DNA of 64,000 bases, from assembly GCA_965224245.1 (NCBI GenBank), contig OZ245046.1, forward strand, positions 4,320,001-4,384,000. Reading direction: 5' to 3'. Of this stretch, positions 32,022 through 48,566 are shown piece after piece. Source of the stretch: Candidatus Eiseniibacteriota bacterium. GTDB lineage: Bacteria; Eisenbacteria; RBG-16-71-46; CAZAMP01. Below the pieces are notes generated by a model that was not told where the DNA came from, made no database searches, and saw nothing but the letters and a program-made list of their open reading frames with translations. The translations under genes and the position numbers were made by a program. Position 1 is the first letter of the stretch. Every line of letters begins with the position of its first letter.

Positions 32022-32152
32022 GGCCAGGCACTCTAGCCCAAGGGGGTCGGCTCGGCGACCCCCACGACGCGGATTGGCCACGCATCACGCCTCGACACCG
32101 TGGGCCGACCGGTCGTCGGCCCGATTGGAATCCGTCGAGGCGAGCGCCGTTC

Positions 32153-35100
32153 TCACCAGTGATCCGACCCGCCGCTCGACTTGTCGGGAAACGGCGGCGG
32201 GGTCGGCCGCGGTACCGGCGCCTCGGCGATCTTCCCCTCGAGGTAGGCGATCGCGGCGTCGAGCTGGGGATCCCGCCCCTTCATGAGCTCGGCGGGGTCG
32301 TCCTCGACGATCATGTCGGGCTCGACGCCGACGCCCTCGATGATCCACTCGCCCTCCGGTATCCACGCCGCGTAGTTCGGTATGTACACCGCGCCACCGT
32401 CCACCAGGCGGTAGCCGCCGCCGCTTCCCACCTCACCTCCCCAGGTCCGCGTTCCGATCAACGGACCGATCCCGCGTCGCTGGAAGGCGTCGCTGAACTC
32501 CTCGGCGTTGGACCCGCTCTGGTCGTTGCAGAGCGCGGCCGCGTGCCCGGTGAACGCCCAGTCCTGCCGGCTCCAGGACGCGCCGTAGCGCGGCTTGAAG
32601 TACGAGTACCGGGGCGAGGACATCTGGAGGATGAGCATGGCGTGGATGTAGCCGCCGCCGTTGAACCGGACGTCGTAGATCAGACCGTCTCGGTCGAGAC
32701 TCGCGTAGTAGTGCTTGCCGAACTCCTGAAAGCCGCGGCCGCTCATGTTCGGGATGTGCACGTAGCCGAGGTCGGGGCCTCCGTGCTCGAGCACGTACCG
32801 CCGCCGTCCCTCCACCCAGTCGAAGTAGCGTGCGCGTCGCTCGCTCCGCATCGGCTCGACGAACACCTCGCGCGCTCCGTCGAACGACGCGCGATCGTTC
32901 ACCGTCAACGTGACGGCCCGGCCCGCCGTTCCGACCAGGAGCGCCTGGAGCTCCTGGTCCGCGCGCACGGGAGCGCCACTCACCGCGACGATCACGTCCC
33001 CGACCGACACCTCGACTCCCGGGGTCAACAGCGGCGACCGAGCATCGAGATCGAAGCCGTCGCCGGCCAGGATCCGCGTGATCCGGTACCCCGGCACGTC
33101 GTCGTTGACCGGCTCCACGTCGATCCCGAGGTAGCCCATCGGAATCAGGGGCGCGCGCTGCTCGTCGCCGCCGACGATGTACGCGTGGCCGCAGTTCAGC
33201 TCGGCGACCATCTCGCGCTGGAGGAAGCTGAGATCGCTCCGCACCGCGACCGCCTCCAGCAGCGGCTCGTACTTGTCCCGGACCGCCGGCCAGTCGACGC
33301 CGTGCATGCCGGGGTCGTAGAAGAAGTCGCGCGCGACCCGCCAGGTCTCGGCGAACATCTGCCGCCACTCGGCGACCGGATCGATCGTGAGCGTCCAGCC
33401 GTCCGTCTCGACCTGGCCGTCGTCCTCGGGCATCTCGCCGGCGCCGGCATCCAGCAGCGTGAAGCGCTTCCCACGCCGGACGAGGAGCTTCTTCCGGTCC
33501 GCGGAGAGGTCGAACTCGTCGAGCGCCTCCACGAGCACCTTCGCCTTCTTCTCCTCGAGATCGAAGGTGTGGAGCCGGCGGGGTCCGGACATCTCTCCGT
33601 CGTCCCCCTCGGCGCCCTCGTACGTCTCCAGGAGCAGCTTCTTCTCGATGGGAACCACGCGCGTGTACCGATCGGCGGGAACCGGGACCTCGACGACACG
33701 GGTTGCGATCCCGTCCACGTCGACGGTCATGTCGGGCAGCTCCCGCTCGTCGTCGTTGTCATCCTCGTCGTCGTTGTCGTCCTCGTCGTCCTCGTTGCTC
33801 GCATCGTCGTCGGTCGCGCCCTCGCGGTCGTTCTCGTCGAGGAATGGAGACCGCGTCTCGGCGGCGAGCGTGACCAGCGTGACCTTCGTCATCTTCTGGT
33901 CGTAGGTGAAGTACCGGTTGATCGGCGAGTAACGCGGGTCGAGCTCGCGATCGGCCAGGAAGTACAGGAGCTCGCCGTCGGGATCGAACGCCGGCGCGTA
34001 GCACGACATCGCGGGATCGGTGATCCGCGTGGTCTCGCCGGTCGCGATCTCGTACAGGTGGACGCTCCAGGCCCATCTCGGCTCCAGATGCGTGAAGGCG
34101 ACCCACTTGCCGTCGGGGCTGAACGCGTACTGGCTCAGCACGATGTCGTACGATCCCCCGCGATCGGACTGGTCCACCACGGTCATGGCCCCGGAGGCCA
34201 CGTCGACGAGCAACGTGCGCATCTCGCGATCGCTGGTCAGGAGCCGCTCGCCGTCGGGTGACCAGACGATCGGGCCCAGGGGGCCGGTGTGGCCGGACGT
34301 CACCTGTCGAGCCTCGCCGCCCGAGGCGGGCACGATCCAGATCTCCTCCTCACCCGAGACGTCGGACACGTACGCGACCTCGGCTCCGTCGGGAGACCAC
34401 TCGGGGTACTGGCACCGGGCCGCGGCATCCGCCGCGACGACCCGCACGTCGCCGTGCTCGGCCGGCGCGCTCAGGATCTGTCCCCTCGCCGAGACGAGGA
34501 TCCGCTTGCCGGTGGGACCCAGCTCGAAGCCGAAGAGCTGATCGTGCGCCGAGACGCGGCGCTCCCGCGCGTGAATCCGGTCGGAGCGAAGATCCAGGTG
34601 GATCGAGCGCGTCTGGCCGGTGGCCACGTCGTAGAGTCCGATGCCGTCGCCGTACTCGTACACGACGACCCGTCCGTCCGACTGCGGGTAGCGCACCTCG
34701 AAGTCGGTGTAGGACGTGGCCGGCGTCACGTCGCCCGAGCCGGGATCCAGCGCGTGGAGGTTGGCCACGCCGTCGCGCTCGGACACGAAGTAGATCACGT
34801 CCCCGGCCCAGACCGGCTGGGTGTCCACGCCGAGATCGTCGGTCAGGCGCCGGAAGTCGGGCACCGCGTCCGCGTCGGGTGAGGGTGTCGCGAGCCACAC
34901 GTCGTCGGCGAATCCGCCCCGGTAGCGCTTCCAGTTCTGCCACTCGCCGCTGATCGGCACGTACGCGATCCGTCCATCCGGGTGCAGCGTGGCGAACTCG
35001 CCGTACGGGACCGGCAGGCGGGTCGCGGCGCCGCCCGCGAGGGGAACCTGCCAGATGCGTGTGCGCATGGTCGTCCCGCGACGCGATCGGAACACGACGT

Positions 35101-35503
35101 GCGTCCCGTCGGGGCTCCAGCCGAGCACGGTCACGCCACGGGGATCCCAGGTCAGGCGTCGCGGCACGCCGCCGGCGACGTCCATCACGTAGACCTCGCG
35201 AGCCCCGTCATAGCTCGCGGCGAACGCCAGCGTTCGCCCGTCCGGGGAGAAGAACGCCGGCCCCTCCGATCCCTCGTCGGACGTGATCCGCATCGCGGTG
35301 CCGCGCTCGATCGAGCCGAGCCACAGATCACCTTCGCTGGTGAAGACGATCTGATCTCCCGAGACGTCGGGACGGCGGAGAAACTGAGCGGCGGCCCCGG
35401 CCGGTGACGCGGTCGCGAGCGCCAGGGTCAACCCGCCGCCGAGACACGCCACGACGAGCCGACGGGAAAGGCGACGGAAAGGGGAGTGGACACGCGAGCG
35501 CAC
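32153..35503 (-). CDS. Tricorn protease (S41 family, PD40 propellers, PDZ)
   Basis: 'IVFTSEGDLW', 'WKRYRGG', 'FYDPGMHGVDW', 'ELNCGHAY', 'DVRFNGGG', 'GSNAE', 'GTRTWGG', 'IEGVGVEPD'; AGGAGG RBS before GTG 35503. Confidence 0.93.
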   Translation of the reverse strand: MRSRVHSPFRRLSRRLVVACLGGGLTLALATASPAGAAAQFLRRPDVSGDQIVFTSEGDLWLGSIERGTAMRITSDEGSEGPAFFSPDGRTLAFAASYDGAREVYVMDVAGGVPRRLTWDPRGVTVLGWSPDGTHVVFRSRRGTTMRTRIWQVPLAGGAATRLPVPYGEFATLHPDGRIAYVPISGEWQNWKRYRGGFADDVWLATPSPDADAVPDFRRLTDDLGVDTQPVWAGDVIYFVSERDGVANLHALDPGSGDVTPATSYTDFEVRYPQSDGRVVVYEYGDGIGLYDVATGQTRSIHLDLRSDRIHARERRVSAHDQLFGFELGPTGKRILVSARGQILSAPAEHGDVRVVAADAAARCQYPEWSPDGAEVAYVSDVSGEEEIWIVPASGGEARQVTSGHTGPLGPIVWSPDGERLLTSDREMRTLLVDVASGAMTVVDQSDRGGSYDIVLSQYAFSPDGKWVAFTHLEPRWAWSVHLYEIATGETTRITDPAMSCYAPAFDPDGELLYFLADRELDPRYSPINRYFTYDQKMTKVTLVTLAAETRSPFLDENDREGATDDDASNEDDEDDNDDEDDNDDERELPDMTVDVDGIATRVVEVPVPADRYTRVVPIEKKLLLETYEGAEGDDGEMSGPRRLHTFDLEEKKAKVLVEALDEFDLSADRKKLLVRRGKRFTLLDAGAGEMPEDDGQVETDGWTLTIDPVAEWRQMFAETWRVARDFFYDPGMHGVDWPAVRDKYEPLLEAVAVRSDLSFLQREMVAELNCGHAYIVGGDEQRAPLIPMGYLGIDVEPVNDDVPGYRITRILAGDGFDLDARSPLLTPGVEVSVGDVIVAVSGAPVRADQELQALLVGTAGRAVTLTVNDRASFDGAREVFVEPMRSERRARYFDWVEGRRRYVLEHGGPDLGYVHIPNMSGRGFQEFGKHYYASLDRDGLIYDVRFNGGGYIHAMLILQMSSPRYSYFKPRYGASWSRQDWAFTGHAAALCNDQSGSNAEEFSDAFQRRGIGPLIGTRTWGGEVGSGGGYRLVDGGAVYIPNYAAWIPEGEWIIEGVGVEPDMIVEDDPAELMKGRDPQLDAAIAYLEGKIAEAPVPRPTPPPFPDKSSGGSDHW

Positions 35504-35669
35504 GCGGCACCTCCTGAATCGATGGAGACGAGAAGCGAACGCGTGACGATACCACGCCGCACGGGTCTCGGGATCGGAACTCTGAACGGCTGGATACAAG
35601 ACCGCCCGCTCGTGGCCGGGTGCCTCGGCGGGCGGGTCGGGATCCGACCTCCCGGCGGAGTCCGCCGGC

Positions 35670-36413
35670 CTATTCCGTGACCACCGCCTCGGAGCGACCG
35701 ACCTCGTCTCCCGGTGCGCTCCGCCAGTCGGTCAGGAACAGCTCCGCGGCCAGCGCGTGCCAGCGATCGCCGCCGATGTGGCGCCCGAAGCCGTAGATCG
35801 GCAGCCCGCCGTCCTGCATCACGACGCCGAGCTCCCGGCCCATCAACCCGCTGATCCGGTCCGACGTCTCCTTCATCCACGAGCGCGCCAGAGAGTACGG
35901 CAGCAGGTTCTTCAGCGAGCGCTCGGCCTCGCGCGGGCGCACCTCGAGCAGCCAGCCCTTCCCGTACGGATCGGCGCTGGCGGTCTGGGGTGCCTCGGCC
36001 GCGTCGTCGTTGATTCCCACGACGACGCCGTCCACCGGCGACAGCATGTCGATGACGTGGCCGTCCACCCGGAGATGGAAGCCCGGCTTTCCCTGTTCGA
36101 GCACGGTCCCCTCGGCCGGGAGCATGACCGCGCTCGGGCTTCCCAGGAAGTGATACGCGAAGTCGTCCACCCCCACGCGTACGGTGTCGGCCTCGTCCGG
36201 TCGCGCCCAGGTGTGCCCCCGGTGATAGAAGAATCCCTCGGGAAGCCGGAACCACTCGACCGGAGCCGAGTCGGCCGCCCCGGCGACCGCGCCCCGGACC
36301 CGCGCCGGCGACGCCGACCAGATCCGCGCCGCGAGACGTGTCAAGGGAACGAGCAGCGCCAGGTACCCGATGGCCAGGATGTACTCGATGCCCTTGGTCG
36401 GCATGAAATCCAT
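35670..36413 (-). CDS. Membrane-anchored glycine-cleavage-H-like protein (no lipoyl Lys)
   Basis: 'TKGIEY' plus TM; 'YHRGHTWA', 'VRVGVDDFA', 'SPVDGVV..IN', 'DPYGKGWL'. Confidence 0.85.
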   Translation of the reverse strand: MDFMPTKGIEYILAIGYLALLVPLTRLAARIWSASPARVRGAVAGAADSAPVEWFRLPEGFFYHRGHTWARPDEADTVRVGVDDFAYHFLGSPSAVMLPAEGTVLEQGKPGFHLRVDGHVIDMLSPVDGVVVGINDDAAEAPQTASADPYGKGWLLEVRPREAERSLKNLLPYSLARSWMKETSDRISGLMGRELGVVMQDGGLPIYGFGRHIGGDRWHALAAELFLTDWRSAPGDEVGRSEAVVTE

Positions 36414-36427
36414 GACTCACTCCCCCT

Positions 36428-37690
36428 TCACGCCACCGACGACTGGATCCGGGGCGTCGAGGCATCCCGGGAAGTCCGGGACTCGGTCGACGCGCCGAGT
36501 ACGGCCATGCGATTGATCACCCACCGGAACACCCAGATCTCGGCGCTGACGACACCCATCACCACGACGATCTCCATCCAGGTGGGGACGTAGTGGTGCA
36601 CGGCGTCGTAGCGGAACGCGATCACCGACACGTTCAGGCGATTCAGGACCACGCCGGCCAGCGTCAGGACGGACGCGACCCGGATGACCTTCTGCCGCCG
36701 CGTCGCCGCTCCGTACGCGAACAGCACCATCGGCACCGCAACCAGACCCAGGATCTCGAGCGTCCACCAGCCCGCGTAGAACCCCGAGAGATCACGCCAG
36801 TGCTGTCCGTGCAGGAAGTTGAGCGCCAGCAGGAACAGATACGCGAACATCGCACCGGCGCAGATTCGCGCCAGCCCGACGACGATGTCGCGATGGGCCG
36901 AGATCAGCTTCAGGCTCATCCGGTGAAAGAACGCTCGGTGGGTCAGCGTGCCCTCGAGGATCACCATCGAGAGACCGGCGAACACGCTCGAGACCACGAA
37001 CAGCACGGGCAGGAACTCCGAGTACCAGAGCGGATGGAGCTTCTGCTTCGCCATCAGATAGAGGGCGCCCAGGCCGGACTGGTGCAGGAGCGACAGCGTG
37101 ATCCCGAGGATCACGGCGCCCACCGTCATCCGGGCCAGGACCCGGCGTGCGCGCTCGGCGCCGAACCACTCGGCGATCGCGGGCGAGAACTCCACCAGCT
37201 CGGCCAGCATGTACAGAAGGAAGTGCCATGCGACCAGGAACAGGACCGACGTCATCCCGAACGAGTTTCCGATGATCGGGTTGACGACGTGCCACGGCCG
37301 GCCGAGGTCCAGAACGAGCGCTCCGGCATAGAACACGTACGCCAGGAAGCCGTTCAGCACCGTGACCCGGACGATCGGCTTGTACGCCTCGAGGCGCAGG
37401 ATGTAGACGAGGAACGTCACCATGTACGCGCCACCGGCCAGCGCCACGCCGGCCATGACGTCGAAACCGATCCAGAGGCCCCACGGAACGTCCTGGGACA
37501 GGTTCGTCACCGCCCCCAGACCGTAGGCGAAGCGGATCGCGATGATCACCGCCGCCGCGAGCATGAGGACGGCGGTGATCAGATTGAACGGCGTCAGCAC
37601 ACGCCCCTTCGGACGCAGCTCTCGTCTCAGGAACGCACGTGTTCCCAGACGCTGACGCGGATGAACGGGCATCGGCACGACGGCGCTCAT
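36428..37690 (-). CDS. NrfD/PsrC family membrane subunit (HybB/HmcC-like)
   Basis: 'GLGAVTNLSQDVPWGLWIGFDV..GVALAGG', 'DLGRPW', 'LHQSGLG', 'HPLWYS', 'NRLNV', 'YVPTWMEI'. Confidence 0.9.
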   Translation of the reverse strand: MSAVVPMPVHPRQRLGTRAFLRRELRPKGRVLTPFNLITAVLMLAAAVIIAIRFAYGLGAVTNLSQDVPWGLWIGFDVMAGVALAGGAYMVTFLVYILRLEAYKPIVRVTVLNGFLAYVFYAGALVLDLGRPWHVVNPIIGNSFGMTSVLFLVAWHFLLYMLAELVEFSPAIAEWFGAERARRVLARMTVGAVILGITLSLLHQSGLGALYLMAKQKLHPLWYSEFLPVLFVVSSVFAGLSMVILEGTLTHRAFFHRMSLKLISAHRDIVVGLARICAGAMFAYLFLLALNFLHGQHWRDLSGFYAGWWTLEILGLVAVPMVLFAYGAATRRQKVIRVASVLTLAGVVLNRLNVSVIAFRYDAVHHYVPTWMEIVVVMGVVSAEIWVFRWVINRMAVLGASTESRTSRDASTPRIQSSVA

Positions 37691-37691
37691 G

Positions 37692-38606
37692 TCAGGCCTC
37701 CCCCGAGGGATCGGTCCACTCGGTCGTCGAGTTCGTTCCGCCGGACGCGCTCGCGTGCGAGTCGCTCGCGACCCGCGATCCGGTCGCACCGCGCAGTCCC
37801 AGGAGCGCCATCGGCACCAGTCCGATCACCACGGGCACCGCCGTGAGGAAGTCCCGCGTCAGCTCCGGGTAGGACGTGTCGTCGAGATCCGTGGGGAAGC
37901 CGAGCTCCGCGAAGTCCACCTTCGAGATGTAGAGCCAGCCGGTTCCCCCGGCCTCGTGCTCACCGTAGATGTGCGGGACGTACTCGTCGTCCTCGGCCAG
38001 CCGTGCGCGCGCGATCCGGAGCAGCCCGGACCGGCGACCGAAGGTCAGCGCCTCGGCCGGGCACTCCTCCACACAGGCCGGCTGCTCCCCCTCCTTCAAG
38101 CGTTCCCAGCACATCGTGCACTTCTCGATCCGGGGGTTCCGGCTGTGGTACTCGAACTTCGGCACGTCGAACGGGCACGAGATCATGCAGTAGCGGCACC
38201 CCATGCACTTGTCGCCGTTCCACACCACCGGTCCGTCCGGTGTCCTGGACAGCGCCTTGGTCAGGCAGCCGGCCGCGCAAGCGGGCTGGAGACAGTGCAT
38301 GCACTGACGCCGGACGTAGACGTCACCCTTGCTCGTCTGGAACCGGGAGACCGCCACCCGTCGCCGGTCGCTGGTCGTGCGGAATCCCACCTCGTCGAGG
38401 TCGACGTCCTCCGGCTCGGGGAGGCCGTTGGCCTCGGCGCAGGCGTACTCGCAGCTCCGGCAACCCTCGCAGAGGCTGAGATCCACGAGGACACCCCAGC
38501 CGTCGACGTCGACTCCATCATCCGCGCTCGCTCGTGACGCCCCCGGGCGGGCAATGGACGCGCTGCCCATCACCGCGAGCGTCTGAAGAAAGCTACGCCG
38601 CTTCAT
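37692..38606 (-). CDS. Tat-exported 4x[4Fe-4S] protein (HybA/HmcB/NrfC-like) with C-terminal TM
   Basis: 'MKRRSFL' Tat motif; CEGCRSCEYAC, CMHCLQPACAAGC, CMGCRYCMISCP, KCTMC..PACVEECP; 'IYGEHEAGGT'. Confidence 0.92.
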   Translation of the reverse strand: MKRRSFLQTLAVMGSASIARPGASRASADDGVDVDGWGVLVDLSLCEGCRSCEYACAEANGLPEPEDVDLDEVGFRTTSDRRRVAVSRFQTSKGDVYVRRQCMHCLQPACAAGCLTKALSRTPDGPVVWNGDKCMGCRYCMISCPFDVPKFEYHSRNPRIEKCTMCWERLKEGEQPACVEECPAEALTFGRRSGLLRIARARLAEDDEYVPHIYGEHEAGGTGWLYISKVDFAELGFPTDLDDTSYPELTRDFLTAVPVVIGLVPMALLGLRGATGSRVASDSHASASGGTNSTTEWTDPSGEA

Positions 38607-39369
38607 GCTCACCCCCAAAGAAGCTCGTGCGTACGTGCTCCCACTGGGCGTCTCCGATCAGTCGGTGCAGCTCGTCCACGAGCGCACCGCCGTCGGCGAC
38701 GACCGGCGAGTGCTCGTCCCCCGAGAGGACGGCGATGAGACGATCGACCTCTCCCTTGAACCAGTCCCGCGCGCGGCGACCCAGGAGGAGATCGCAGCGC
38801 GGCTCGCTCGCGTCGTCGCACGCGACCCGGAGGGCCCAGCCTCTCGCGTAGGGATCCCGGTTGACCAGTCCGGCGTCGGACCGGAGCGCGTCGTTCACGA
38901 ACTCCACGCGCCCGGAGATCGGTGATGTCAGCTCGATCCAGCGAGATCGGGCACGGAGACGGATCGCGGGCTTTCCGCGCTCGACGCGATCCCCGGGAAC
39001 GGGGAGCTCGATGCCGTGGAGCGGCCCCAGGAGACGCGGTGCCAGATCGTCGGATCCCACGATCGCGGTGCCGGGCAGGAACCGGACCCAGGCGTGTCCG
39101 CGATCGAGCGCCACGTCGGTCCCCAGACGAAGTCCCTTGTGGAGGATCTCCGCGGCCGACATCGCACCGAAGCGCTCGCGGAAACCCGGGCTCACGGCGT
39201 ACGCGACCGCCACCGCCACCAATGCACTGGCGAACGCGACCAGGAGCGCGACGCGGACTGCCACGACGAGAAACGCGAGCAGCGGTAGGGCGAGCAGCAC
39301 GAGAACCGCCCCGGTGATCACGACCGTCGTGAGGATCGCGTGCCGGCTTCGGCTGCTAGTGCGTGACAT
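38593..39369 (-). CDS. Second membrane-anchored glycine-cleavage-H-like protein (no lipoyl Lys)
   Basis: Long N-terminal hydrophobic stretch; 'GHAWV', 'VGSDDLA', 'SPISGRV..VN', 'DPYARGW', 'ADGG'; GGAGG RBS. Confidence 0.82.
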   Translation of the reverse strand: MSRTSSRSRHAILTTVVITGAVLVLLALPLLAFLVVAVRVALLVAFASALVAVAVAYAVSPGFRERFGAMSAAEILHKGLRLGTDVALDRGHAWVRFLPGTAIVGSDDLAPRLLGPLHGIELPVPGDRVERGKPAIRLRARSRWIELTSPISGRVEFVNDALRSDAGLVNRDPYARGWALRVACDDASEPRCDLLLGRRARDWFKGEVDRLIAVLSGDEHSPVVADGGALVDELHRLIGDAQWEHVRTSFFGGEHEAA

Positions 39370-39417
39370 GACGCCTCCCTTCCCCCGCATGTCGGGGAAC
39401 GACCGCCCTCACCTCTT

Positions 39418-39434
39418 CGCATGTGGCGCGCCAG
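39418..39434 (-). promoter_or_regulatory. Candidate sigma54 promoter for the gcvH-like/hybAB-like operon
   Basis: Minus strand CTGGCGCGCCACATGCG (GG-N10-GC), about 50 bp upstream of ATG 39369. Confidence 0.6.
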
Positions 39435-39543
39435 TCCGCCCGGGAGAGCCCCACGGATCGTGCAACCGGCCATCACGCGAACGCTTGCGTTCGATCGTCC
39501 GGAGATCGGGGAGGACGCCCGCTGGCGGGAGGCGGCCCCGGGC

Positions 39544-39579
39544 GTCGAGAATCTCGACACCGGTGTGGAGGATCTCCAC
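39544..39579. promoter_or_regulatory. Tandem 15-bp palindromes, candidate enhancer (UAS) for the NtrC-type activator
   Basis: GTCGAGAATCTCGAC (39544-39558) and GTGGAGGATCTCCAC (39565-39579), 21 bp apart, 110-145 bp from the -24 element. Confidence 0.6.
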
Positions 39580-39687
39580 GACCACGCGGTGGCGCGGCGT
39601 CGGGGCTCGGGATTCCCCTATACCCGCGTTTGCCGGAAAGGTCTTTCCTGAACGCGGGGTGTGCCTTCTCGAGTCGGCGAGGATGTC

Positions 39688-41370
39688 ATGCGATCTCCCA
39701 TCGGCGTCCGGGCCTCGCGGCTGGGTGCCCGGCTGTTTCTGCCTCTGGTCGCGATCGTGGCCGTCACGTTCGCGATGCACGCAGTGGTGAACTACCGGAC
39801 CTCGCGCAACGAGCTTCTCGGCTTCCTCCGATCGAACGCCGATCAGTCGAGCGATCTGATCCGGCGCGCCACCCACGACGGAATGCTCCTGAACCGGCTG
39901 GACGACGTGCAGGACACGATCACGCGCATCGTCGAGGGTCCGGGCATGGCGGCCATCCGCGTATACGACAAGGCCGGCGCCGTCGTCCTGTCGGCCCATC
40001 GGGACGAGATCGGCCAGCGGGCACCGATCACGTCGGACACGTGCGAGAGCTGTCACCAGCCCAATCACACGACCGAGGTCGGGCGCCTCGAGCGAAGCGG
40101 TCTGGCGCGGCTCTCGCGAGGCGAGGAGGTACTTCGCCACCTGTCGGTGATCCCGAACGAGCCCGCCTGTGCCGCCCCGGGCTGTCACGCGTCGCCCGAC
40201 GAGGCGCCGATCCTCGGCGTCCTCGACATCGAGATGTCGATGCAGCCGGTAGAGTCCACTTTGCGCGCGGCGCAGGCCCGGATCGCCCTGACCACGTTCG
40301 CGCTGATCGTGCTGATCGGATGGGCGTGCTGGGTGTTCATCGACCGGTTCGTGCATCGACCGGTCGCGGCGCTCACCGAGGGCACGCGACGGATCGCGAG
40401 CGGCGACCTCGAGACGCGGATCCGCGTGGAGGGCGGCCACGAGTTCGCCGACCTCGCGGGGTCCTTCAACGCGATGTCCGAGGATCTCCTGGCCGCCAAG
40501 CGCGAGCTCGAGACGTGGTCGCGCACGCTGGAGGAGAAGGTGCTGGACAAGTCGGCCGAGCTCCAGCGCGCGCACCGTCAGGTGCTCCACATGGAGAAGA
40601 TGGCGTCGCTCGGCAAGCTGTCGGCCACGGTGGCTCACGAGCTCAACAACCCGATCACGGGGATGGTGAACTACACGCGTCTGATCGAGCGCGAGCTCGG
40701 ACGGCAGCCGCTGGCGATGACCACGAAGGACGAGCTACTGCGCTACCTCGGTTTTCTCCACCGCGAGTGCCTCCGGTGCGGGAAGATCGTGTCGAACCTG
40801 TTGCTCTTCGCCAGGCGAACCGGCACCGAGATGGCCCCGGTGGATCTCCGCGTCGTGCTGGACCAGAGCCTGATGCTGATCGATCACCATCTGCACGTCA
40901 GCGGCGTCCAGCTGGAGAAGAAGCTGCCCGACCGCGACCTCACGGTCATCGCCGACGCGGGAGAGCTCCAGCAGGCGCTCGTGGCCTTGTTGATCAACGC
41001 GGTGGAGTCGATGGCGGGTCCGGACGCGGTCGACGAGCGGCTGACCGTCGAGGTCGTGGTCGAGGACGACGCGGTGCGAGTGGACATCCGCGACACCGGG
41101 GCCGGGATCGCCGCCGACGTGCTGCCGCACATCTTCGAGCCCTTCTACTCGACGAAGGACGAGGAGGGCGGCGTCGGGCTCGGGCTGGCGGTGGTCTACG
41201 GGATCGTCCAGCGTCACGGAGGCCGCATCGACGTCGAGTCGGAGACGGGGAGCGGCACCACGTTCCACCTGTGGATCCCGAGGGGCATCGAGTCGTTCGA
41301 ACCGCGGCCGGGGCCCGACGACCGGCTGTCGGTGGTGGGTGGACCTCGCCGGGGAGGAGCGACGTCATGA
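39688..41370 (+). CDS. HAMP sensor histidine kinase with periplasmic haem-c-type motifs
   Basis: Two TMs; periplasmic 'CESCH' and 'CAAPGCH'; H-box 'AHELNNP'; 'DTGAGI', 'FEPFYSTK', 'GLGL'. Confidence 0.92.
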   Translation: MRSPIGVRASRLGARLFLPLVAIVAVTFAMHAVVNYRTSRNELLGFLRSNADQSSDLIRRATHDGMLLNRLDDVQDTITRIVEGPGMAAIRVYDKAGAVVLSAHRDEIGQRAPITSDTCESCHQPNHTTEVGRLERSGLARLSRGEEVLRHLSVIPNEPACAAPGCHASPDEAPILGVLDIEMSMQPVESTLRAAQARIALTTFALIVLIGWACWVFIDRFVHRPVAALTEGTRRIASGDLETRIRVEGGHEFADLAGSFNAMSEDLLAAKRELETWSRTLEEKVLDKSAELQRAHRQVLHMEKMASLGKLSATVAHELNNPITGMVNYTRLIERELGRQPLAMTTKDELLRYLGFLHRECLRCGKIVSNLLLFARRTGTEMAPVDLRVVLDQSLMLIDHHLHVSGVQLEKKLPDRDLTVIADAGELQQALVALLINAVESMAGPDAVDERLTVEVVVEDDAVRVDIRDTGAGIAADVLPHIFEPFYSTKDEEGGVGLGLAVVYGIVQRHGGRIDVESETGSGTTFHLWIPRGIESFEPRPGPDDRLSVVGGPRRGGATS

Positions 41371-42734
41371 GCGCGTCCGAGGGACGCATCCTGATCGTGG
41401 ACGACGAGTTCTCGGTCCGGGATTCCCTGACGAACTGGTTCGGAAAAGACGGCTACGACGTGACCGCGGCGGAGAACGCGGCGGAGGCGCTCCGATCCCT
41501 GGAGGGCGGCTCGTACGACGTCGTGCTCCTCGACATCAAGATGCCGGGGATGGACGGCATGGCGCTCCTGGAGCGTGTCCGCGAGATCGACCCGAGCATG
41601 GCGGTGATCATGATGACCGCATTCGCATCGGTGGAGACCGCGGTACGCGCGCTGAAGGAAGGTGCGTTCGACTACGTCACCAAGCCCATCGATCCGGACG
41701 AGCTCTCCCATCTCGTGCGCCGCGCGATCGATCAGCGCCGCCTGCGCGACGAGAACCTCCGGCTCCGCGAGACCCTGGACGAGGTCACCGGCGTCCCGCC
41801 CATCATCGGCGACAGCCCGGCCATCCGCGAGGTGATGCGCCTCGTGGACCAGGTGGCCGGGACCGACGCCACGGTCCTCGTCCTCGGCGAGAGCGGCACC
41901 GGCAAGGAGCTCATCGCGCGGGCGATTCACGCCGCGAGCCCCCGCCGCTACTTCCCCCTGGTCCCGGTGAACTGCGGCGCGCTCCCGGCGGAGCTCCTGG
42001 AGAGCGAGCTCTTCGGCCACGAGAAAGGCGCGTTCACCGGGGCCCAGCAACGTCGCAAGGGACGCATCGAGATGGCCGGCGGGGGCACGCTGTTCCTGGA
42101 CGAGGTGGGGGCCATTCCACCCCGGATGCAGGTCGATCTCCTTCGGGTGCTCGAGACCCACGAGTTCACCCGTCTCGGCAGCTCACAGCCGATCCACGCC
42201 GACTTCCGCGTGATCTGTGCGACCAACGAGGACCTGGAGAAGGCGGTCGCGGACGGTCGGTTCCGCGAGGACTTCTTCTACCGCATCAACGTGTTCACGA
42301 TCCTGGCGCCGCCGCTCAGGAGCCGTCGCTCGGACATCCGCCTCCTCGCCGAGCACTTCCTCGACGAGCTCGGCCGCAAGATGAACAAGCGCTTCACCGG
42401 CTTCGCGCCAGACGCCATGGAGCTTCTGACCAGCTACCACTGGCCGGGCAACGTGCGCGAGCTGTACAACGCGATCGAGCGGGCGATGGTCGTGGGCCGG
42501 CCGCCGACGATCCGGTCGGACGACATGCCGGTGTGGCGCTCGCGCGCCGGGGTCGAGACACACAGCGCCCGCCTCGCCGACATCGAGCGGCGGCACATCG
42601 GCAAGGTGCTCGACGAGACCGGATGGAACATCACCCGGGCGGCCGAGCTGCTCGACATCGACCGGGCCACCGTCTACAGCAAGATCAAGAAGTATGATCT
42701 GGAGCCGCCTCAGGCGCGCACGAACGGCACATGA
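41367..42734 (+). CDS. Sigma54-dependent NtrC/AtoC family response regulator
   Basis: Receiver 'ILIVDDE...LLDIKMP'; GESGTGKE, GAFTGA, 'WPGNVREL'; Fis-type HTH; ATGA overlap with kinase. Confidence 0.95.
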   Translation: MSASEGRILIVDDEFSVRDSLTNWFGKDGYDVTAAENAAEALRSLEGGSYDVVLLDIKMPGMDGMALLERVREIDPSMAVIMMTAFASVETAVRALKEGAFDYVTKPIDPDELSHLVRRAIDQRRLRDENLRLRETLDEVTGVPPIIGDSPAIREVMRLVDQVAGTDATVLVLGESGTGKELIARAIHAASPRRYFPLVPVNCGALPAELLESELFGHEKGAFTGAQQRRKGRIEMAGGGTLFLDEVGAIPPRMQVDLLRVLETHEFTRLGSSQPIHADFRVICATNEDLEKAVADGRFREDFFYRINVFTILAPPLRSRRSDIRLLAEHFLDELGRKMNKRFTGFAPDAMELLTSYHWPGNVRELYNAIERAMVVGRPPTIRSDDMPVWRSRAGVETHSARLADIERRHIGKVLDETGWNITRAAELLDIDRATVYSKIKKYDLEPPQARTNGT

Positions 42735-42804
42735 TCGCGCATCCGCCGACCGCGGCGACCGCGCCGCGCCCGCGTCGCGCACGCGTGAACGCCCCCGGGG
42801 AGAC

Positions 42805-43347
42805 GTGCAGCCCTCCGCTCCTCTGCGGCTGGTGCCGTTCTACCTCGGCTCCCACGCAGGGCTCGTCTCCCGGCTCTCGGACGGCCTGACACACGCGTTC
42901 GGGCTTCGCGTGGAGCAGCACCCACCGGCGTTCGATCCCGAGATCGCCTACGACGCGTCGCGGGGGCAGTACAACTCGCGGGCCCTCCTCGCCCAGCTTC
43001 TCGCCGAGGCGCCGGACGAGGAGGGGCACATCCTCGGCGTCACGGGACTGGATCTCTTCATCCCCGTGCTCACGTTCGTGTTCGGGGAGGCGCAGCTCGG
43101 GGGCCGGGTTGCCGTCGTGTCGACCTATCGGCTCGACGACGTCGTCTACGGGCTGCCGGCGGCGCCGGAGCTACTTCTCGATCGCCTGGTGAAAGAGGCC
43201 GTTCACGAGCTGGGACACACGTTCGGGCTCGTGCACTGTCACGATCCCACGTGCGTGATGACCAGCTCGACTCAGGTGGACGGGATCGATCTCAAGACGA
43301 ACCGGTTCTGCTCCGCCTGCCAGGACCGCGTGCTGGCGCGCCCGTGA
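42805..43347 (+). CDS. Archaemetzincin (M54) zinc metalloprotease
   Basis: 'RGQYNS', 'DLFIPVLTFVFGEA', 'KEAVHELGHTFGLVHC..PTCVM', 'FCSAC'. Confidence 0.9.
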   Translation: MQPSAPLRLVPFYLGSHAGLVSRLSDGLTHAFGLRVEQHPPAFDPEIAYDASRGQYNSRALLAQLLAEAPDEEGHILGVTGLDLFIPVLTFVFGEAQLGGRVAVVSTYRLDDVVYGLPAAPELLLDRLVKEAVHELGHTFGLVHCHDPTCVMTSSTQVDGIDLKTNRFCSACQDRVLARP

Positions 43348-43489: not shown

Positions 43490-44365
43490 TCAGCCCTGGG
43501 CTCCCCGGTCGCCGCTGCCGCGTCGCTTGCGCCAGTCCCCCCGAGGCTCGCCCTGCCAGGCGAGCATCGCCTGGAGGCTGGTCGCGAAGCCGTCGATGCC
43601 CGGGAACAAGCTCAGGCGGTTCACGTTCAGGCGGTTCAGCCACGCGAGCAGGTACCACTGATTGTCGAGGGTGATGGGGATCTCGATCTTGATCACACGC
43701 GTCCGCAGCACGGTGGGCGTGCCGAGCGACCGGAGGTTGCTCATGAACGACTTGCCCGGATTCATGGGGACCAGGAACACGCCTTGCTGCACGGCCAGCC
43801 GCTCGTTGACGTAGTACGGCACCAGCGGAACCACGAGGGTCGGCTCCTCCTCCAGGAGCACCGTGACCGCCGCGGGACTCTTGAGCTTCGGATCGATCCG
43901 GAGGGCCTCCCGCACGGCCGGCACCTTGCTGCGCCGGAGCCGATCGAACATCCACTGCTGGTCGATGGCCCAGACCGCGCACGTGTCACCGGGGTTGGCC
44001 TGCTCGATCGCGAAGAAGAGCGCGATGTGAAACGAGTACGTCCAGTCGAGCAGTCGCGTGGGCGCGCCGTGATGCTGCATGAGCGCGTACCACTCCATGA
44101 AGTCGTCCGCACGCGGGACGCGTCCCGTGAACCGATGGAGGTGTCTGACGAAGTGGCGGAAGACGCGCCACTCGAGATACGCCTGATGTGAGAGCGGCCT
44201 GCCGAAGCGGTCGGTCGCGATCCGCTCCAGGCTCGGCTTGAGATCCCAGCTCGAACTCCCCTGGCCGCGAAACACCCACTGGATGCTCGGATCGGAGAAG
44301 CGCGCCTCGATCAGATCCTGAACCGACTGCCACGAGTCGCAGCTCTCGACGTGATACCAGGTCAT
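43490..44365 (-). CDS. FRG domain protein
   Basis: 'WVFRGQ', 'MQHHGAPTRLLDWT', 'ALFFA', 'NERLAVQQGVF', 'SLFPGIDG'; AGGAGG RBS. Confidence 0.9.
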   Translation of the reverse strand: MTWYHVESCDSWQSVQDLIEARFSDPSIQWVFRGQGSSSWDLKPSLERIATDRFGRPLSHQAYLEWRVFRHFVRHLHRFTGRVPRADDFMEWYALMQHHGAPTRLLDWTYSFHIALFFAIEQANPGDTCAVWAIDQQWMFDRLRRSKVPAVREALRIDPKLKSPAAVTVLLEEEPTLVVPLVPYYVNERLAVQQGVFLVPMNPGKSFMSNLRSLGTPTVLRTRVIKIEIPITLDNQWYLLAWLNRLNVNRLSLFPGIDGFATSLQAMLAWQGEPRGDWRKRRGSGDRGAQG

Positions 44366-44532
44366 CCGCACACCTCCTGTGCCGGTCGAACCCGGACCAT
44401 ACACCGGGCAGGGCGACCGTTCGACGGTCGTGAGACGCCCCCGGCCGGGGGGGGGCACCCGGCCGGGGCCGATGCCGACCGGACCGCATGCCGTGCCCCA
44501 CAGATCGCTTCGTTCAGCGGGGACGTCCGTCC

Positions 44533-44562
44533 GTGTGATTCCGGTACCCCCCACGCGCCCAA
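44533..44562 (+). promoter_or_regulatory. Candidate ECF-sigma promoter (copy 1)
   Basis: GTGTGATTCCGG-N10-GCGCCCAA; flanks and spacing identical to the copy at 48567-48596. Confidence 0.7.
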
Positions 44563-44634
44563 TCCGAGCGACCACCCGGGCGTGCCGGCGGAGGCCGCCC
44601 GCACTGACGGCATCCACGTTACAGGAGGCACGAC

Positions 44635-47100
44635 ATGCTCCGCTGGAACGCCGGCGCGCGCCGCGGGCGCGCGTTCACGGCGGCGCTCGCGTGCGCGCTC
44701 GTCTGGCTCGGGATCGCAGCCGCCGGCTCGTCCGCCGCCACGTACTTCGTCGACGCCGCACGGCCCGACGACGCGGGTAGCGGAACGAGCTGGGACGACG
44801 CCAAGAGGACGATCGACGCCGCCATCGCCGCCTCGGCCGCCGGAGACGCCATCCTCGTCAAGTACGGCGCCTACGCGATCGACGACGACATCGTGCTCGT
44901 CTCGCATCGTCGCATCACGTCCGACGACGGCACGCACCTCGACTGGAGCTCGGCCGATCCCGATTCGAGTCTCTGCGTCGTCGACGCCGGCCAGGGCTCT
45001 CGTGTGCTCACCATCCACGGCGCCGCGATGACCGGACCGACTCACGTTCGAGGCCTCGAGCTGACCGGCGGCGACGGCACGTACAGCTCCGCCGACCCGT
45101 CCGCCGCCTATGGAGGCGGCGTCTACGTCGATGGGGGCGCCGACGTCACGCTCGAGCGCTGCTGGATCTCGGGCAACGTCGGCGGTACCAGCTACAACGG
45201 ATTCGGCGGTGGGGTCGCGTGTCTGGGGACAGGGACCGACGTCTCGATCGAGGACTGCCGGATCTCGGGAAACACCGCGGCCACACCCCATCACGGGTAC
45301 GGCGGCGGCATCTACTGCGACGGCGTCACCGCCACGATCGTCGGGAACGTGATCGAGGGCAACCTCGGATCCGTCCACCGGACCGGGGTCGGCGGCGGCA
45401 TCTACGCCGCGAACAGCGACGTCGTCGTCCAGTCGAACACGATCACGGACAACGTCGCGGCCGGACCCAGCTCGGGCGCGGGCGGCAACGGCGGCGGCGT
45501 CTATCTCTTCTCGGGCACCGCCGACGTCGGGCTGAACACGATCACCGGCAACAGCGCCGCCGAGGCGACGTCGAGAAGCGGTGCCGGCGGCGGGATCTAC
45601 TGCAGCACCGCCGAGACGTACATCTGGGAGAACGTGGTCGGCGAGAACGTCGCCTCTCGGGGGGGACGGGGCAACGGTGGCGGGATCTACTGCCGGGGAT
45701 CCGATTCGGTCGTACGCGACAACGAGGTGTACGACAACGTGGCCAGCACGTCCACCACAGGAGGCTACTACGCGTACGGCGCCGGGGGCGGCATCGTCGC
45801 CGGCGAGGGCAGCGGCATTCACGTGCTCCGCAACCGTGTGTACGGGAACGTCGCCTCTCGCTACGGAACGGGCAACGGAGGCGGGATCTGGATCAACAAC
45901 ATCGCGCAGATCGTGGAGCGGAATCTCATCTACGACAACGTCGCGTCGGAGGGGGCGCCCGGCGCCGGTGGCGGCGTCTTCATCAACGGCACGACGCGCG
46001 CCGAGGTCGTCAACAACACCCTGTACCACAACGCGAGCCAGACCGGCGGCGACGGGGGAACCGGCAGCGGGATCTATCACACCTCGGGCGGCACCCCGAC
46101 GATCCGCAACAACGCCATCGCCGCTCACGACGTGCCCGGCAGCGACATGGTGGGGATCTACGAGACCTCCGCCCTGACCGTCGAGTACAACTGCTATCAC
46201 GACAATCCGGGCGGGCACTACAACGAGCACGTGGTCTCGCTGAACGAGGGCATCGGCGAGCCCCGCTTCACCGACGCCGCGGTCCGCGACTTCGAGCTGC
46301 TGTACGACTCACCCCTGATCGAGGCCGGGCATCCCGACACGGAGGTGCCCGAGAACGGCGGCTGGCGCGTCGACGTGGGCGCGATCGAGTACACGGGGAT
46401 CCGCCACGCCCGCGCCGTCCCGGGCCCCGGTGAGTACCTGTTCGGCGGACAGGTCCGCGCAAAGGTGACCGTCACCACGTTGGGCACGCTGTCCGAGATC
46501 GACATGACCGTACATCCCGGCGAACGGCATCCCGATGCGGTGAGCGTCGTCGATCGCTGGTTCGACATCCAGGCGGACGAAGGAGGTGGAACCACGTTCG
46601 AGCTCACGCTCAGCTATCTCGACGAGGAGCTGAACGGGCACCGGGAGAGCGACCTCACCCTCTGGCGGCGGGACGGATCGTCGTGGGAGGGACCCAAGGT
46701 CCCCACGGACGCCGATGCCGACGACGACTGGCTGACCGTCAGCGGGGAGACCGCGTTCAGCGACTGGGTGATCAGCGGCTTCGACGTGATGCTCGACGTC
46801 CCTGGCGAGACCGTGCTCGGGCCCGCCGTCGCCCTCGGAGCCCCGGCGCCGAACCCGTTCCGCGTCGTGAGCAGGCTGCGGTTCGACCTGGCCGACCGGG
46901 GCCGGACCACGCTGGCGGTCTATCGAACCGACGGGCGGCGGGTTCGCACGCTGATCGACGCGGTGCTCCCGGTCGGCGTGCACGAGATCACCTGGGATGG
47001 TCGCGACGACGCGGGGCACGCGGTCGCGTCCGGTACCTATTTCTGCCGGCTGTCGACGGCACGGGGTCGAGTCGACCGTCGACTGACCCTCGTGCGATGA
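44635..47100 (+). CDS. Secreted right-handed parallel beta-helix (GGGIY repeat) protein with C-terminal FlgD-Ig/T9SS-type domain
   Basis: Signal peptide; 'GSGTSWDDAKRTI'; many 'N.A..GGGIY' repeats; 'SPLIEAG...DVGAIEY'; 'PNPF...WDGRDDAG...SGTYF'. Confidence 0.88.
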   Translation: MLRWNAGARRGRAFTAALACALVWLGIAAAGSSAATYFVDAARPDDAGSGTSWDDAKRTIDAAIAASAAGDAILVKYGAYAIDDDIVLVSHRRITSDDGTHLDWSSADPDSSLCVVDAGQGSRVLTIHGAAMTGPTHVRGLELTGGDGTYSSADPSAAYGGGVYVDGGADVTLERCWISGNVGGTSYNGFGGGVACLGTGTDVSIEDCRISGNTAATPHHGYGGGIYCDGVTATIVGNVIEGNLGSVHRTGVGGGIYAANSDVVVQSNTITDNVAAGPSSGAGGNGGGVYLFSGTADVGLNTITGNSAAEATSRSGAGGGIYCSTAETYIWENVVGENVASRGGRGNGGGIYCRGSDSVVRDNEVYDNVASTSTTGGYYAYGAGGGIVAGEGSGIHVLRNRVYGNVASRYGTGNGGGIWINNIAQIVERNLIYDNVASEGAPGAGGGVFINGTTRAEVVNNTLYHNASQTGGDGGTGSGIYHTSGGTPTIRNNAIAAHDVPGSDMVGIYETSALTVEYNCYHDNPGGHYNEHVVSLNEGIGEPRFTDAAVRDFELLYDSPLIEAGHPDTEVPENGGWRVDVGAIEYTGIRHARAVPGPGEYLFGGQVRAKVTVTTLGTLSEIDMTVHPGERHPDAVSVVDRWFDIQADEGGGTTFELTLSYLDEELNGHRESDLTLWRRDGSSWEGPKVPTDADADDDWLTVSGETAFSDWVISGFDVMLDVPGETVLGPAVALGAPAPNPFRVVSRLRFDLADRGRTTLAVYRTDGRRVRTLIDAVLPVGVHEITWDGRDDAGHAVASGTYFCRLSTARGRVDRRLTLVR

Positions 47101-47239: not shown

Positions 47240-47950
47240 TCACGGCATCCGGAACGTGCCGACCCGTGAACGCGCGATCTCGTCTCGGTTTCGGTAGGCG
47301 ACCACACACCACGCTACCGCGGCGCCGGATGGCGGCGGATCGGGGACGCGCGTGGGCTGGAAGACCAGGAGCGTGTCGGGGCCACCGTCCACGATCGCGT
47401 GAACCGTGCCGTCGTCGTCGAGAAGGTGCAGCTCGTAGCGGTTCGCTCCGTCGACCGGACGCCAGGTCAGACGCACCCGTCCGCCCGCCATCCTCTCGGG
47501 CTCCTCGGCGATCGAGACCACGTCCGTGCCGGCCCGGTCACCGCGGAGGCGGAGCTCGGGCTCCCGGTCGTCACGAGCGAGCAACGTCATGGCCGACACC
47601 ACGACGACGAACGCGGCGCCGGCACCGAACGCGGGCCTCCAGCGCGGGCCGAGGAACGCGTCGAAGAGGCGGTCCAGTCGGCTCGGGCGGGTCGACCGGG
47701 CGGCGGCCGCCGACCGCCGGGTCGCGCTCGCTCCGGTGAGGATCTCCCGTTCGAGCACGTCCGAGAGGCGCGCCGCGGCGTCGGTCGGGTCCGCACCCGC
47801 GGGGACATCGGCGGGATCGAGAAACGACCGATACGACGCCAGCCGCGCCCGGCAACGCGGGCAGTCATGCAGGTGGTCGAGCGCGCGGTCACCCGGAGCG
47901 AGCCCGGCGATCGTCTCCAGCTCGTCGATTCGGTAGCAGGCGTCGCTCAT
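47240..47950 (-). CDS. Zinc-binding anti-sigma factor (zf-HC2) with TM and extracytoplasmic beta domain
   Basis: 'HLHDCPRC' (HxxxCxxC); TM 'AAFVVVVSAMTLLA'; ATGA overlap with sigma gene. Confidence 0.8.
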   Translation of the reverse strand: MSDACYRIDELETIAGLAPGDRALDHLHDCPRCRARLASYRSFLDPADVPAGADPTDAAARLSDVLEREILTGASATRRSAAAARSTRPSRLDRLFDAFLGPRWRPAFGAGAAFVVVVSAMTLLARDDREPELRLRGDRAGTDVVSIAEEPERMAGGRVRLTWRPVDGANRYELHLLDDDGTVHAIVDGGPDTLLVFQPTRVPDPPPSGAAVAWCVVAYRNRDEIARSRVGTFRMP

Positions 47951-48561
47951 GGTGATGATCCCCAGCGGTGCGCGTCGTCGTCTCGTGCTCTCGCTGCGAG
48001 TGCGCTGCGAAGCTTTCGCCGCGCGCTCTGCAGCACCCCACGGGCCCCCGACGCGGACCCGATCTTCAGGATCACGGTGATGTCGTCCACGGCGACCCGC
48101 TCGAAGCAGCGGAGCCAGATCGCCTCCTGCTCGACGGGCTCGAGCGTCCGCCGGATCAGCGCGAGCGACGCCTCCTCGTCGAGACGCTCTTCGAGCTCAC
48201 GATCGGGACCGATGCCGTCGTCCATCACGGCATCGGGATCGGCGTGCTCGTCGGTCATGAGCGCCGGTCGACGGAGCTGACTCAAGCAACGATTCCGCGC
48301 GATCGCGAAGAGCCACGACGAGAAGCGCGCCCGCCCCTCGAACGTGCCGAGATCCCGGTATGCCGCCAAGAGCGTCTCCTGGGCCAGATCCAGCGCCCGC
48401 TCGTGGTCGCGGACGTGGCGAACGCACCACAGATACACGCGCCCCTGGTACCTGGCGAACAGGTCGGCGACGTCGCGTCGCACGCCGTCGGCCTCCGGCT
48501 CGGTCTGGAACCGGAGCACGATCTCCTCGTCCGTTCGGTCGGGCGCATTCAATCGGTTCAT
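47947..48561 (-). CDS. ECF sigma factor
   Basis: 'LFARYQGRVY', 'ALDLAQETLLAAY', 'FEGRARFSSWLFAIARNRC', region 4 'ARGVLQSARRKLR'. Confidence 0.9.
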   Translation of the reverse strand: MNRLNAPDRTDEEIVLRFQTEPEADGVRRDVADLFARYQGRVYLWCVRHVRDHERALDLAQETLLAAYRDLGTFEGRARFSSWLFAIARNRCLSQLRRPALMTDEHADPDAVMDDGIGPDRELEERLDEEASLALIRRTLEPVEQEAIWLRCFERVAVDDITVILKIGSASGARGVLQSARRKLRSALAARARDDDAHRWGSSP

Positions 48562-48566
48562 CGAGC

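Follow-up and report, generated by a model that had tools for sequence, protein, structure and literature searches.

The Hmc, Nhc and Tmc complexes of sulfate reducers place a periplasmic iron-sulfur (FeS) protein on a cofactor-less quinone subunit and use a type-II cytochrome c3 as the periplasmic entry, and the Hmc operon includes genes for the multihaem cytochrome HmcA, the cytochrome b HmcE and the CCG subunit HmcF. In hydrogenase-2 of E. coli, HybA is a Tat (twin-arginine translocation)-dependent, tail-anchored protein with four [4Fe-4S] clusters that is paired with the NrfD-like subunit HybB. Here we describe a locus at positions 35670-43347 of a 64,000-nucleotide stretch of a Candidatus Eiseniibacteriota genome (hereafter the window), where a core pair of the same kind stands within a seven-gene redox and regulator module. 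Gene identities were assigned from the list of open reading frames (ORFs) together with Pfam and NCBIfam matches; all seven genes were open at the coordinates given below and their families were matched. The layout agreed with that of the original prediction, namely a minus-strand operon for a GcvH-like protein, an FeS protein, an NrfD-like protein and a second GcvH-like protein, divergent from plus-strand genes for a sensor kinase, a sigma-54 activator and an archaemetzincin. The genes of the operon overlapped or abutted one another. We put at about an even chance the reading that this module carries out inducible electron transfer between quinones and periplasmic c-type cytochromes, regulates itself and uses the GcvH-fold proteins as cytoplasmic subunits.

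The FeS protein (37692-38618, minus strand) is HmcB/HybA-like, a predicted Tat-exported and tail-anchored protein of four [4Fe-4S] clusters with an RRSFLQ Tat signal and 16 cysteines, and it matched Fer4_11 (PF13247). All 16 cysteines were invariant in 65 of 65 aligned sequences, and the Tat motif was kept in 53 of the 65. The NrfD/HmcC/HybB-like membrane subunit (36428-37690, minus strand, with the ORF extending to 37789; PF03916) has 420 residues when counted from its likely start, the ATG at 37690, which follows the stop of the FeS gene by one base. With both Pfam matches above cut-off, the Tat signal and the abutting genes, the pair falls into the NrfC/NrfD-type (CISM) group, and its membrane subunit is a member of a cofactor-less, quinone-interacting family with a putative quinone site. 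HmcB (303 bits, cut-off 420) and HmcC (363 bits, cut-off 550) were the best named NCBIfam matches of the two proteins, followed by HybA (207 bits, cut-off 263) and HybB (239 bits, likewise under its cut-off), and thus all four equivalog scores were below the level of the named families. Genes of the HmcA, HmcE and HmcF types were absent between 32153 and 44617, which sets the locus apart from an Hmc operon; to our knowledge, Hmc in turn has no GcvH-fold membrane proteins, haem kinase, NtrC activator or archaemetzincin.

The earlier statement that the locus holds no hydrogenase, molybdopterin subunit or multihaem cytochrome was borne out for the window by genome-wide matches. NiFe hydrogenase (PF00374) had no match in the whole genome (6.9 Mb, 97% complete), in which respect the host differs from E. 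coli with its hydrogenase-2; seven molybdopterin matches were found, all outside the window, and none of the 37 frames of the genome with at least three CxxCH motifs fell in the window, the nearest lying about 10 kb past its end. Four further NrfD-family genes were located at about 726-730, 1128-1135, 1792-1802 and 5457-5463 kb on the contig; going by their coordinates, two have a molybdopterin match about 3 kb away or less, and three have a multihaem frame at no more than about 4 kb. The window gene was the only NrfD gene of the genome with neither of these nearby. The four other NrfD loci resemble conventional respiratory complexes.

NrfCD pairs lacking a molybdopterin subunit have been described from Melioribacter roseus (PMC3534657) and from MBNT15 (PMC9386147), where the passages concerned propose a quinol:cytochrome role in which an FeS protein and an NrfD-like anchor feed periplasmic multihaem cytochromes. 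The window pair is like them in having no catalytic subunit, a likeness of description only; GcvH-like proteins, a kinase, a sigma-54 activator or an archaemetzincin are not mentioned in those passages. Literature searches found no paper that describes the gene set, and subscription journals and supplements may hold more; in the review of NrfD-like subunits (PMC8076601), a search by terms gave no mention of glycine cleavage proteins.

Relatives of the window system were sought through its first-listed GcvH-like protein, GcvH-like a. It had 670 full-length relatives at E<=0.001 among 7026 scored candidates, and a profile built from 52 orthologues matched 724 clusters (50% identity) at E<=1e-30 among 1.84 billion representatives; many of the relatives carry the precomputed label PF28260. 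In the synteny survey, a single genome was scanned for each species; 431 loci were confirmed, and the best 80 of them were analysed by all-against-all clustering of every frame of at least 70 residues. Many of these 80 contigs are short, and 30 loci have full 8-kb flanks. As labelled in the sequence records, the loci came from at least eight phyla, and the carriers included Acidobacteriota, Gemmatimonadota, Calditrichota, Bacteroidota (under Ignavibacteria/Chlorobiota labels), Thermodesulfobacteriota, 'Deltaproteobacteria' (Syntrophus, Syntrophorhabdus), KSB1, Eisenbacteria, Krumholzibacteriia, Glassbacteria and Planctomycetia.

Apart from shadow frames, the clustering returned six recurrent main gene types. 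GcvH-like genes (199 copies) were present in 80 of 80 loci, NrfD in 73, the FeS protein in 68, the kinase and the NtrC activator in 55 each and archaemetzincin in 54. When only the 30 full-flank loci were counted, the first three types were present in all 30, the kinase and NtrC in 28 and archaemetzincin in 27, and all six occurred together in 27; the incomplete ones were L062 and L066, without regulators and protease, and L077, without the protease. The commonest order was GcvH-like, FeS, NrfD, GcvH-like, GcvH-like, kinase, NtrC and archaemetzincin, all on one strand. The co-occurrence of the gene set is far above chance and recurs in many phyla, and the expected tie between GcvH-like genes and the NrfCD pair was found both in the full-flank loci and in the phylum sample described below, where all 12 NrfD orthologues had GcvH-like genes at a distance of about 2 kb or less. 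Two clusters of small ORFs (about 85-125 residues, 7-8 loci each) without a Pfam match were also seen in or beside the module in loci of the Thermodesulfobacteriota/Syntrophales type, for example at L015:4768-5103, L020:5502-5810, L086:5197-5568 and L076:5383-5718.

The flanks of the related loci, scanned as 261 non-overlapping ORFs of at least 130 residues within 3.5 kb of the module together with four small recurrent ORFs, contained no molybdopterin or hydrogenase subunit domain in any of the 261. Stray items pointing the other way were FdhE and another FeS beta-like gene next to the L057 module, where the contig ends, as well as MobB in L021 and a HypF fragment in L073. The survey that the original prediction had called for thus recovered an intact set and no catalytic subunit. 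That the locus is what is left of a hydrogenase-2 (hyb) or Hmc operon after loss of its catalytic genes, with no function of its own, might have explained why HmcB/HmcC and HybA/HybB are the best named matches in a genome without hydrogenase. Such an origin is extremely improbable, since all frames are open, the motifs for cofactors, Tat export and catalysis are undamaged, and the same set is kept in many phyla and in two deeper clades, besides the hundreds of profile clusters of GcvH-like a; contradicted by the synteny survey, this explanation was rejected.

The host phylum was sampled with 151 genomes, including that of the window and one unpublished genome (G015), which served solely as a non-carrier. 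GcvH-like a was found in 13 of them at E<=1e-30. The NrfD matches were bimodal, with 13 genomes, the window's own among them, at or above 58-64% identity and the next-best match at or below 42%; the 12 foreign orthologues were 58-64% identical to the window protein, and GcvH-like a lay directly adjacent to NrfD in 11 of these 12 loci. In genome G079, two divergent GcvH-like genes were located 1-2 kb from NrfD, beside a second FeS/NrfD pair, NtrC and archaemetzincin. The sole same-family genome in the sample lacks the module, so its distribution is patchy. The best relatives of GcvH-like a were 51-52% identical outside the phylum as against 45% within it, and these closer relatives elsewhere hint at horizontal transfer. 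Many of the weaker NrfD matches were close to archaemetzincin matches, and others were beside c7 cytochromes.

Two deeper clades could be recognized. In clade ii, all eight loci fetched contained one to three GcvH-like genes, the FeS and NrfD genes, a kinase with two haem motifs, NtrC and archaemetzincin. In clade iii, all six loci fetched (L105-L110, from six genomes of the host phylum) comprised a six-haem c7 cytochrome, FeS, NrfD, a kinase and a response regulator in which a GcvH fold follows the receiver (REC) domain as its sole output domain. The sensor had both haem motifs in all eight kinases of clade ii and in all five that were checked from clade iii. Because it is present in both deeper clades, the association of FeS/NrfD pair, haem kinase and GcvH fold predates the clade of the window.

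The neighbourhood of the related loci also pointed to a partner of the core pair. A multihaem cytochrome c gene was found near the module in 27 of the 80 loci, 25 of them by Pfam (cytochrome c3, c7, c554 or NapC) and two (L017, L031) by BLAST cluster. In nine loci a small cytochrome stands between the module genes or right after them, and the one that was scanned, from L018, had TmcA, HmcA and the nine-haem cytochrome as its best matches, a further likeness to Hmc, Nhc and Tmc. With cytochromes adjoining the module in this way, and with the sister clade (clade iii) starting with one, the description of the system as self-contained could be upheld only in part. The adjacency and the six-haem gene of the sister clade together make a cytochrome c encoded elsewhere in the genome the most likely periplasmic partner in the present host. 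All 14 module-bearing genomes of the phylum sample had at least seven c7-family matches, as against at most six in 73 of the 137 others, a contrast that is only a lead, given the non-independence of related genomes and the difference between match counts and copy numbers.

The two GcvH-like proteins flank the core pair. GcvH-like a (35670-36413, minus strand; 247 residues) and GcvH-like b (38593-39390, minus strand; 265 residues) matched PF01597 at E 7e-17 and 1e-15, respectively, and are 30% identical to each other; the probable true start of the latter is the second ATG, at 39369, which is preceded by GGGAGG. Neither reached the cut-off of the protein H family (71.9 and 55.9 bits against 117, NF002270), and the protein atlas gave GcvH-like a only its own family, labelled GCV_H. 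The AlphaFold2 (AF2) model of GcvH-like a (predicted local distance difference test, pLDDT, 87.6) has a membrane helix at residues 7-33, a disordered linker (residues 36-49), a GcvH fold at about 55-170 and two additional C-terminal helices that are absent from H-protein. By Foldseek, this model matched solved H-proteins with template modelling (TM) scores of 0.85-0.93, including 0.91 for 1onl of T. thermophilus, and it also matched GcvH-L of S. pyogenes (5a35). GcvH-like b has a hydrophobic N-terminus followed by the GcvH fold. Thus the fold of glycine cleavage H-protein is shared, whereas the window proteins differ from it by the membrane helix, a C-terminal helical extension of about 55 residues and the lack of a hairpin lysine.

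At the hairpin, His119 of GcvH-like a occupies the position beside the lipoyl-lysine site of true GcvH, and GcvH-like b has Arg there. This column was K in 34, R in 8, H in 4 and another residue in 6 of the 52 orthologues, and profile alignment to solved H-proteins placed the preferred lysine of the family one residue past the lipoyl-lysine; no conserved cofactor-binding residue was found in the GcvH fold of the module proteins. An ordinary gcvH (151 bits) is encoded separately in the genome, whose only other PF01597 match was a weak fragment. In sulfur-oxidising Hdr systems, lipoate-binding GcvH-like proteins are thought to exchange reducing equivalents with Hdr-like enzymes, and the module proteins might likewise be true lipoate-bearing swinging-arm carriers that link the module to cytoplasmic Hdr-like thiol/disulfide chemistry. 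Besides the H-protein fold and the lysine of most orthologues, an HdrA-like metagenome protein that ends in a GcvH fold with the additional helices (P0121), a metagenome protein with three tandem GcvH folds and FAD-oxidase, FeS and CCG domains (P0182), and HdrA/B/C-like genes adjoining the module in L033 and L035 would fit such a carrier. We nevertheless regard it as improbable, for the lysine is one residue off the canonical site and is replaced in 18 of the 52; it is missing from both window copies, from the HdrA fusion (Arg) and from three N-terminal cytochrome fusions (D, E, T), and a recurrent lipoate ligase or synthase gene was not found in the 80 loci. Passages of PMC8076601 on NrfD, moreover, state that it has no cofactor for carrying electrons through the membrane. 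The His and Arg at the hairpin rule out a lipoyl-carrier role for the copies of the window; given these residues and the replacements in 18 orthologues, such a role is excluded for this genome and cannot be general.

The orientation of the GcvH-fold domain was approached by the positive-inside rule. In 44 of the 52 orthologues, there were more lysines and arginines behind the helix than in front of it. In three fusion proteins (P0043, P0132 and P0163), a signal peptide and four haem motifs are followed by one helix and then the GcvH fold, and in a fourth (P0212) a helix, the GcvH fold, a second helix and three cytochrome haem motifs follow one another. The charge counts and the helix layout of the fusions back a cytoplasmic location of the domain. 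The original prediction had proposed cytoplasmic adaptors; the location is consistent with these data, and an adaptor role is a suggestion that goes beyond them. A complex prediction for NrfD with GcvH-like a, based on two 52-row alignments, scored 0.01 and was counted neither for nor against an interaction.

The copies of the related loci differ according to position. One helix was found in 42 of 54 copies before the FeS gene and in 62 of 67 copies after NrfD, and the copy in third position had no helix in 46 of 51. In 36 of the 51 third-position copies, and also in three copies upstream of the operon, the N-terminus has a four-cysteine motif of the CxWMxxGxxxYKLCx5CExC type; examples of this soluble Cys4 paralogue are L041:1484-2278, L068:3036-3827 and L011:3872-4771, and no Pfam or NCBIfam family was obtained for it except weak GcvH matches. 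The window lacks a third copy, and the PF01597 matches gave no other such gene in the genome.

The divergent genes begin with the sensor histidine kinase (39661-41370, plus strand), which has two membrane helices with a periplasmic PDC/PAS-like domain, followed by HAMP, HisKA and HATPase domains. Its periplasmic part contains two haem-c motifs, CESCH at residue 128 (CxxCH) and CAAPGCH at residue 170 (Cx4CH). Of 66 related kinase frames, 58 had both, and those without were mostly short fragments; in an alignment of the 58 sensor domains M36, C89, C92, H93, C131, C136 and H137 were invariant. The AF2 model of the sensor (pLDDT 89.9) has a PDC/PAS fold, and its Foldseek matches included WalK, DctB, CitA and the Geobacter haem-c sensors 3b42 and 3b47. 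The conserved motifs predict covalent haem, and the kinase is probably a di-haem-c sensor. GSU0582 and GSU0935 of Geobacter likewise have a periplasmic PAS/PDC-like fold with a CxxCH motif, but they are chemoreceptors with one motif, whereas the window protein is a histidine kinase with two; the structural likeness is modest, with TM scores of 0.4-0.5, and haem in the window protein is predicted.

The ATG of the NtrC-type sigma-54 response regulator (41367-42734, plus strand) overlaps the stop of the kinase gene as ATGA. The protein has the REC, Sigma54_activat and HTH_8 domains of its class, with a GAFTGA loop in the AAA+ domain and a Fis-type helix-turn-helix, and rpoN is present once in the genome. 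A candidate sigma-54 -24/-12 element, TGGCGCGCCACATGC (39419-39433, minus strand), with two mismatches to TGGCAC-N5-TTGC, was located 29 nt upstream of the operon's first ATG. Both strands of the 80 loci were surveyed for sites with at most one mismatch to this consensus, GG and GC being fixed, and 50 such sites were obtained in all; the 60.9 kb of operon-upstream DNA contained 16 of them, in 14 of the 80 loci, against 1.6 expected (about 10-fold). Many of these upstream sites are 21-39 nt ahead of the start codon, a distance similar to that in the window, and TGGCGCGCCACATGC as a sigma-54 promoter element of the window operon is suggestive. With the kinase, the activator and the sigma-54 sites taken together, the system would be self-inducing.

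The same features bear on the possibility that the module is mainly a signalling device, in which the FeS/NrfD pair samples the redox state of the quinones or the periplasm and the GcvH folds relay it by contacts, with little net flow of electrons. In the sister clade the GcvH fold is the only output domain of a response regulator beside a haem kinase in 6 of 6 loci, and further REC-GcvH proteins were found in L019, L030, L055, L072 and L082, there too beside a haem-motif kinase and a cytochrome c7/FeS/NrfD operon, and as P0142. Linkage of the two-component system to the core genes in 28 of the 30 full-flank loci, and a GcvH fold without a conserved cofactor-binding residue, would also suit a relay. 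Against it stand the four FeS cluster motifs, kept in every aligned sequence, the bulk electron-transfer subunits that are the nearest relatives of the core pair, and the cytochrome c genes in or beside the operon, which resemble those of respiratory complexes; a second sensor is also not required, since a dedicated haem kinase is already there. We therefore hold a mainly signalling function to be unlikely, though less so than the carrier function discussed above.

The last gene of the module encodes an archaemetzincin, an M54 zinc peptidase (42694-43347, plus strand), which scored 158 bits against the cut-off of 145 of NF033823 and carries the full HExxHxxGxxHCx4CxM...CxxC motif, with its catalytic and Cys4 parts complete. 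In family match and extended zinc motif it is like AmzA, AMZ-tk and human AMZ1/2, and it differs in that its gene belongs to a defined bacterial operon. It is the sole M54 gene of the genome. In 44 of the 54 related loci that have it, the archaemetzincin gene adjoins the NtrC gene on the same strand. The family was present in 39 of the 151 genomes of the phylum sample and in 13 of the 14 module carriers, the remaining carrier being G005, whose module is on a 2.7-kb contig piece. According to the abstract of PMC3427221, the biological importance of the archaemetzincin family is hardly known. A Thi4 paper that names archaemetzincin (PMC13325395) deals, in the passages concerned, with a different protein, DUF6775, and has no bearing on this locus.

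Taking these data together, we favour electron transfer between quinones and periplasmic cytochromes as the function of the module. That the transfer is real is argued by the conservation of the 16 cysteines, the Tat signal and tail anchor, the recurrence of cytochrome c genes and fusions, and a sister clade whose operon starts with a cytochrome gene. NrfD would oxidize quinol or reduce quinone, and the four FeS clusters would relay electrons, in either direction, between this subunit and multihaem cytochromes whose genes lie elsewhere in the cytochrome-rich genome. Periplasmic redox state would be sensed by the haem kinase, which would induce the operon via NtrC and sigma-54. The GcvH-fold proteins, tethered to the membrane, may be non-catalytic subunits at the cytoplasmic face that anchor or position partners, and perhaps they gate or regulate the NrfD subunit. 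Archaemetzincin might act on a component of the system, the linker of the GcvH-like protein being the obvious candidate. The suggested tether, adaptor and regulator roles of the GcvH fold, and that of the protease, rest on topology, fusions and linkage.

Several points weigh against this model. The cytochrome partner is assumed and not seen, as no cytochrome c gene is present in the window and 53 of the 80 loci have none within 3.5 kb. Scores below the family cut-offs mean that the activity of Hmc or Hyb cannot be transferred to the core pair, and quinone binding by the NrfD-like subunit is putative. TGGCGCGCCACATGC, with its two mismatches, is not significant alone and would not stand by itself. 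The GcvH-fold and protease genes are conserved like the core and yet are not needed by the model, and so the true logic may differ; the fusions of the GcvH fold in P0121 and P0182 point to cytoplasmic redox partners that are outside it.

The forms in which the GcvH fold was seen, namely membrane-anchored, fused by a single helix to periplasmic cytochromes, Cys4-bearing and as the output of response regulators, where phosphorylation would drive it, raise a further idea, which we offer tentatively and think rather unlikely to hold: that evolution has turned the fold into a domain that controls and tethers NrfD-type quinone modules from the cytoplasm, with archaemetzincin as a dedicated protease that cleaves the tether.

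Both genes that flank the locus are on the minus strand, a tricorn protease gene at 32153-35599 and an FRG-domain gene at 43490-44617, and base composition is even throughout the region. Beyond them, 29538-32081 (minus strand) encodes an 847-residue membrane protein with a weak, below-cut-off DUF2142 match and C-terminal TPR repeats. The 821-residue protein of 44635-47100 (plus strand) has glycine-rich repeats and, as its sole Pfam match, a C-terminal FlgD-Ig-like domain, and it looks like a secreted or surface protein. At 47240-48600 (minus strand), an extracytoplasmic function (ECF)-type sigma factor (Sigma70_r2) is directly upstream of a 236-residue frame without a Pfam match, the place where an anti-sigma factor is normally encoded.

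FeS/NrfD pairs that lack a catalytic subunit are common in the genomes of anaerobes and sediment organisms and are usually given a one-line guess. One large group of such pairs is a fixed multi-gene system in many phyla. Three partners that would not have been expected constantly go with it: proteins resembling H-protein at the inner face of the membrane, a di-haem kinase with a sigma-54 activator, and an archaemetzincin. The system offers a testable handle on how the transfer of electrons between quinones and cytochromes, periplasmic or extracellular, is induced, on the job of a lipoate-free H-protein fold at a membrane complex or as the output of a response regulator, and on the function of archaemetzincins. 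Going by the record titles, there are cultured carriers, Caldithrix abyssi (L056) and Syntrophus aciditrophicus (L068), and therefore experiments are possible. If the GcvH fold is indeed a control and tethering domain served by its own protease, the module would represent a new class of regulators of respiratory complexes and would give archaemetzincins a concrete, testable physiological context.

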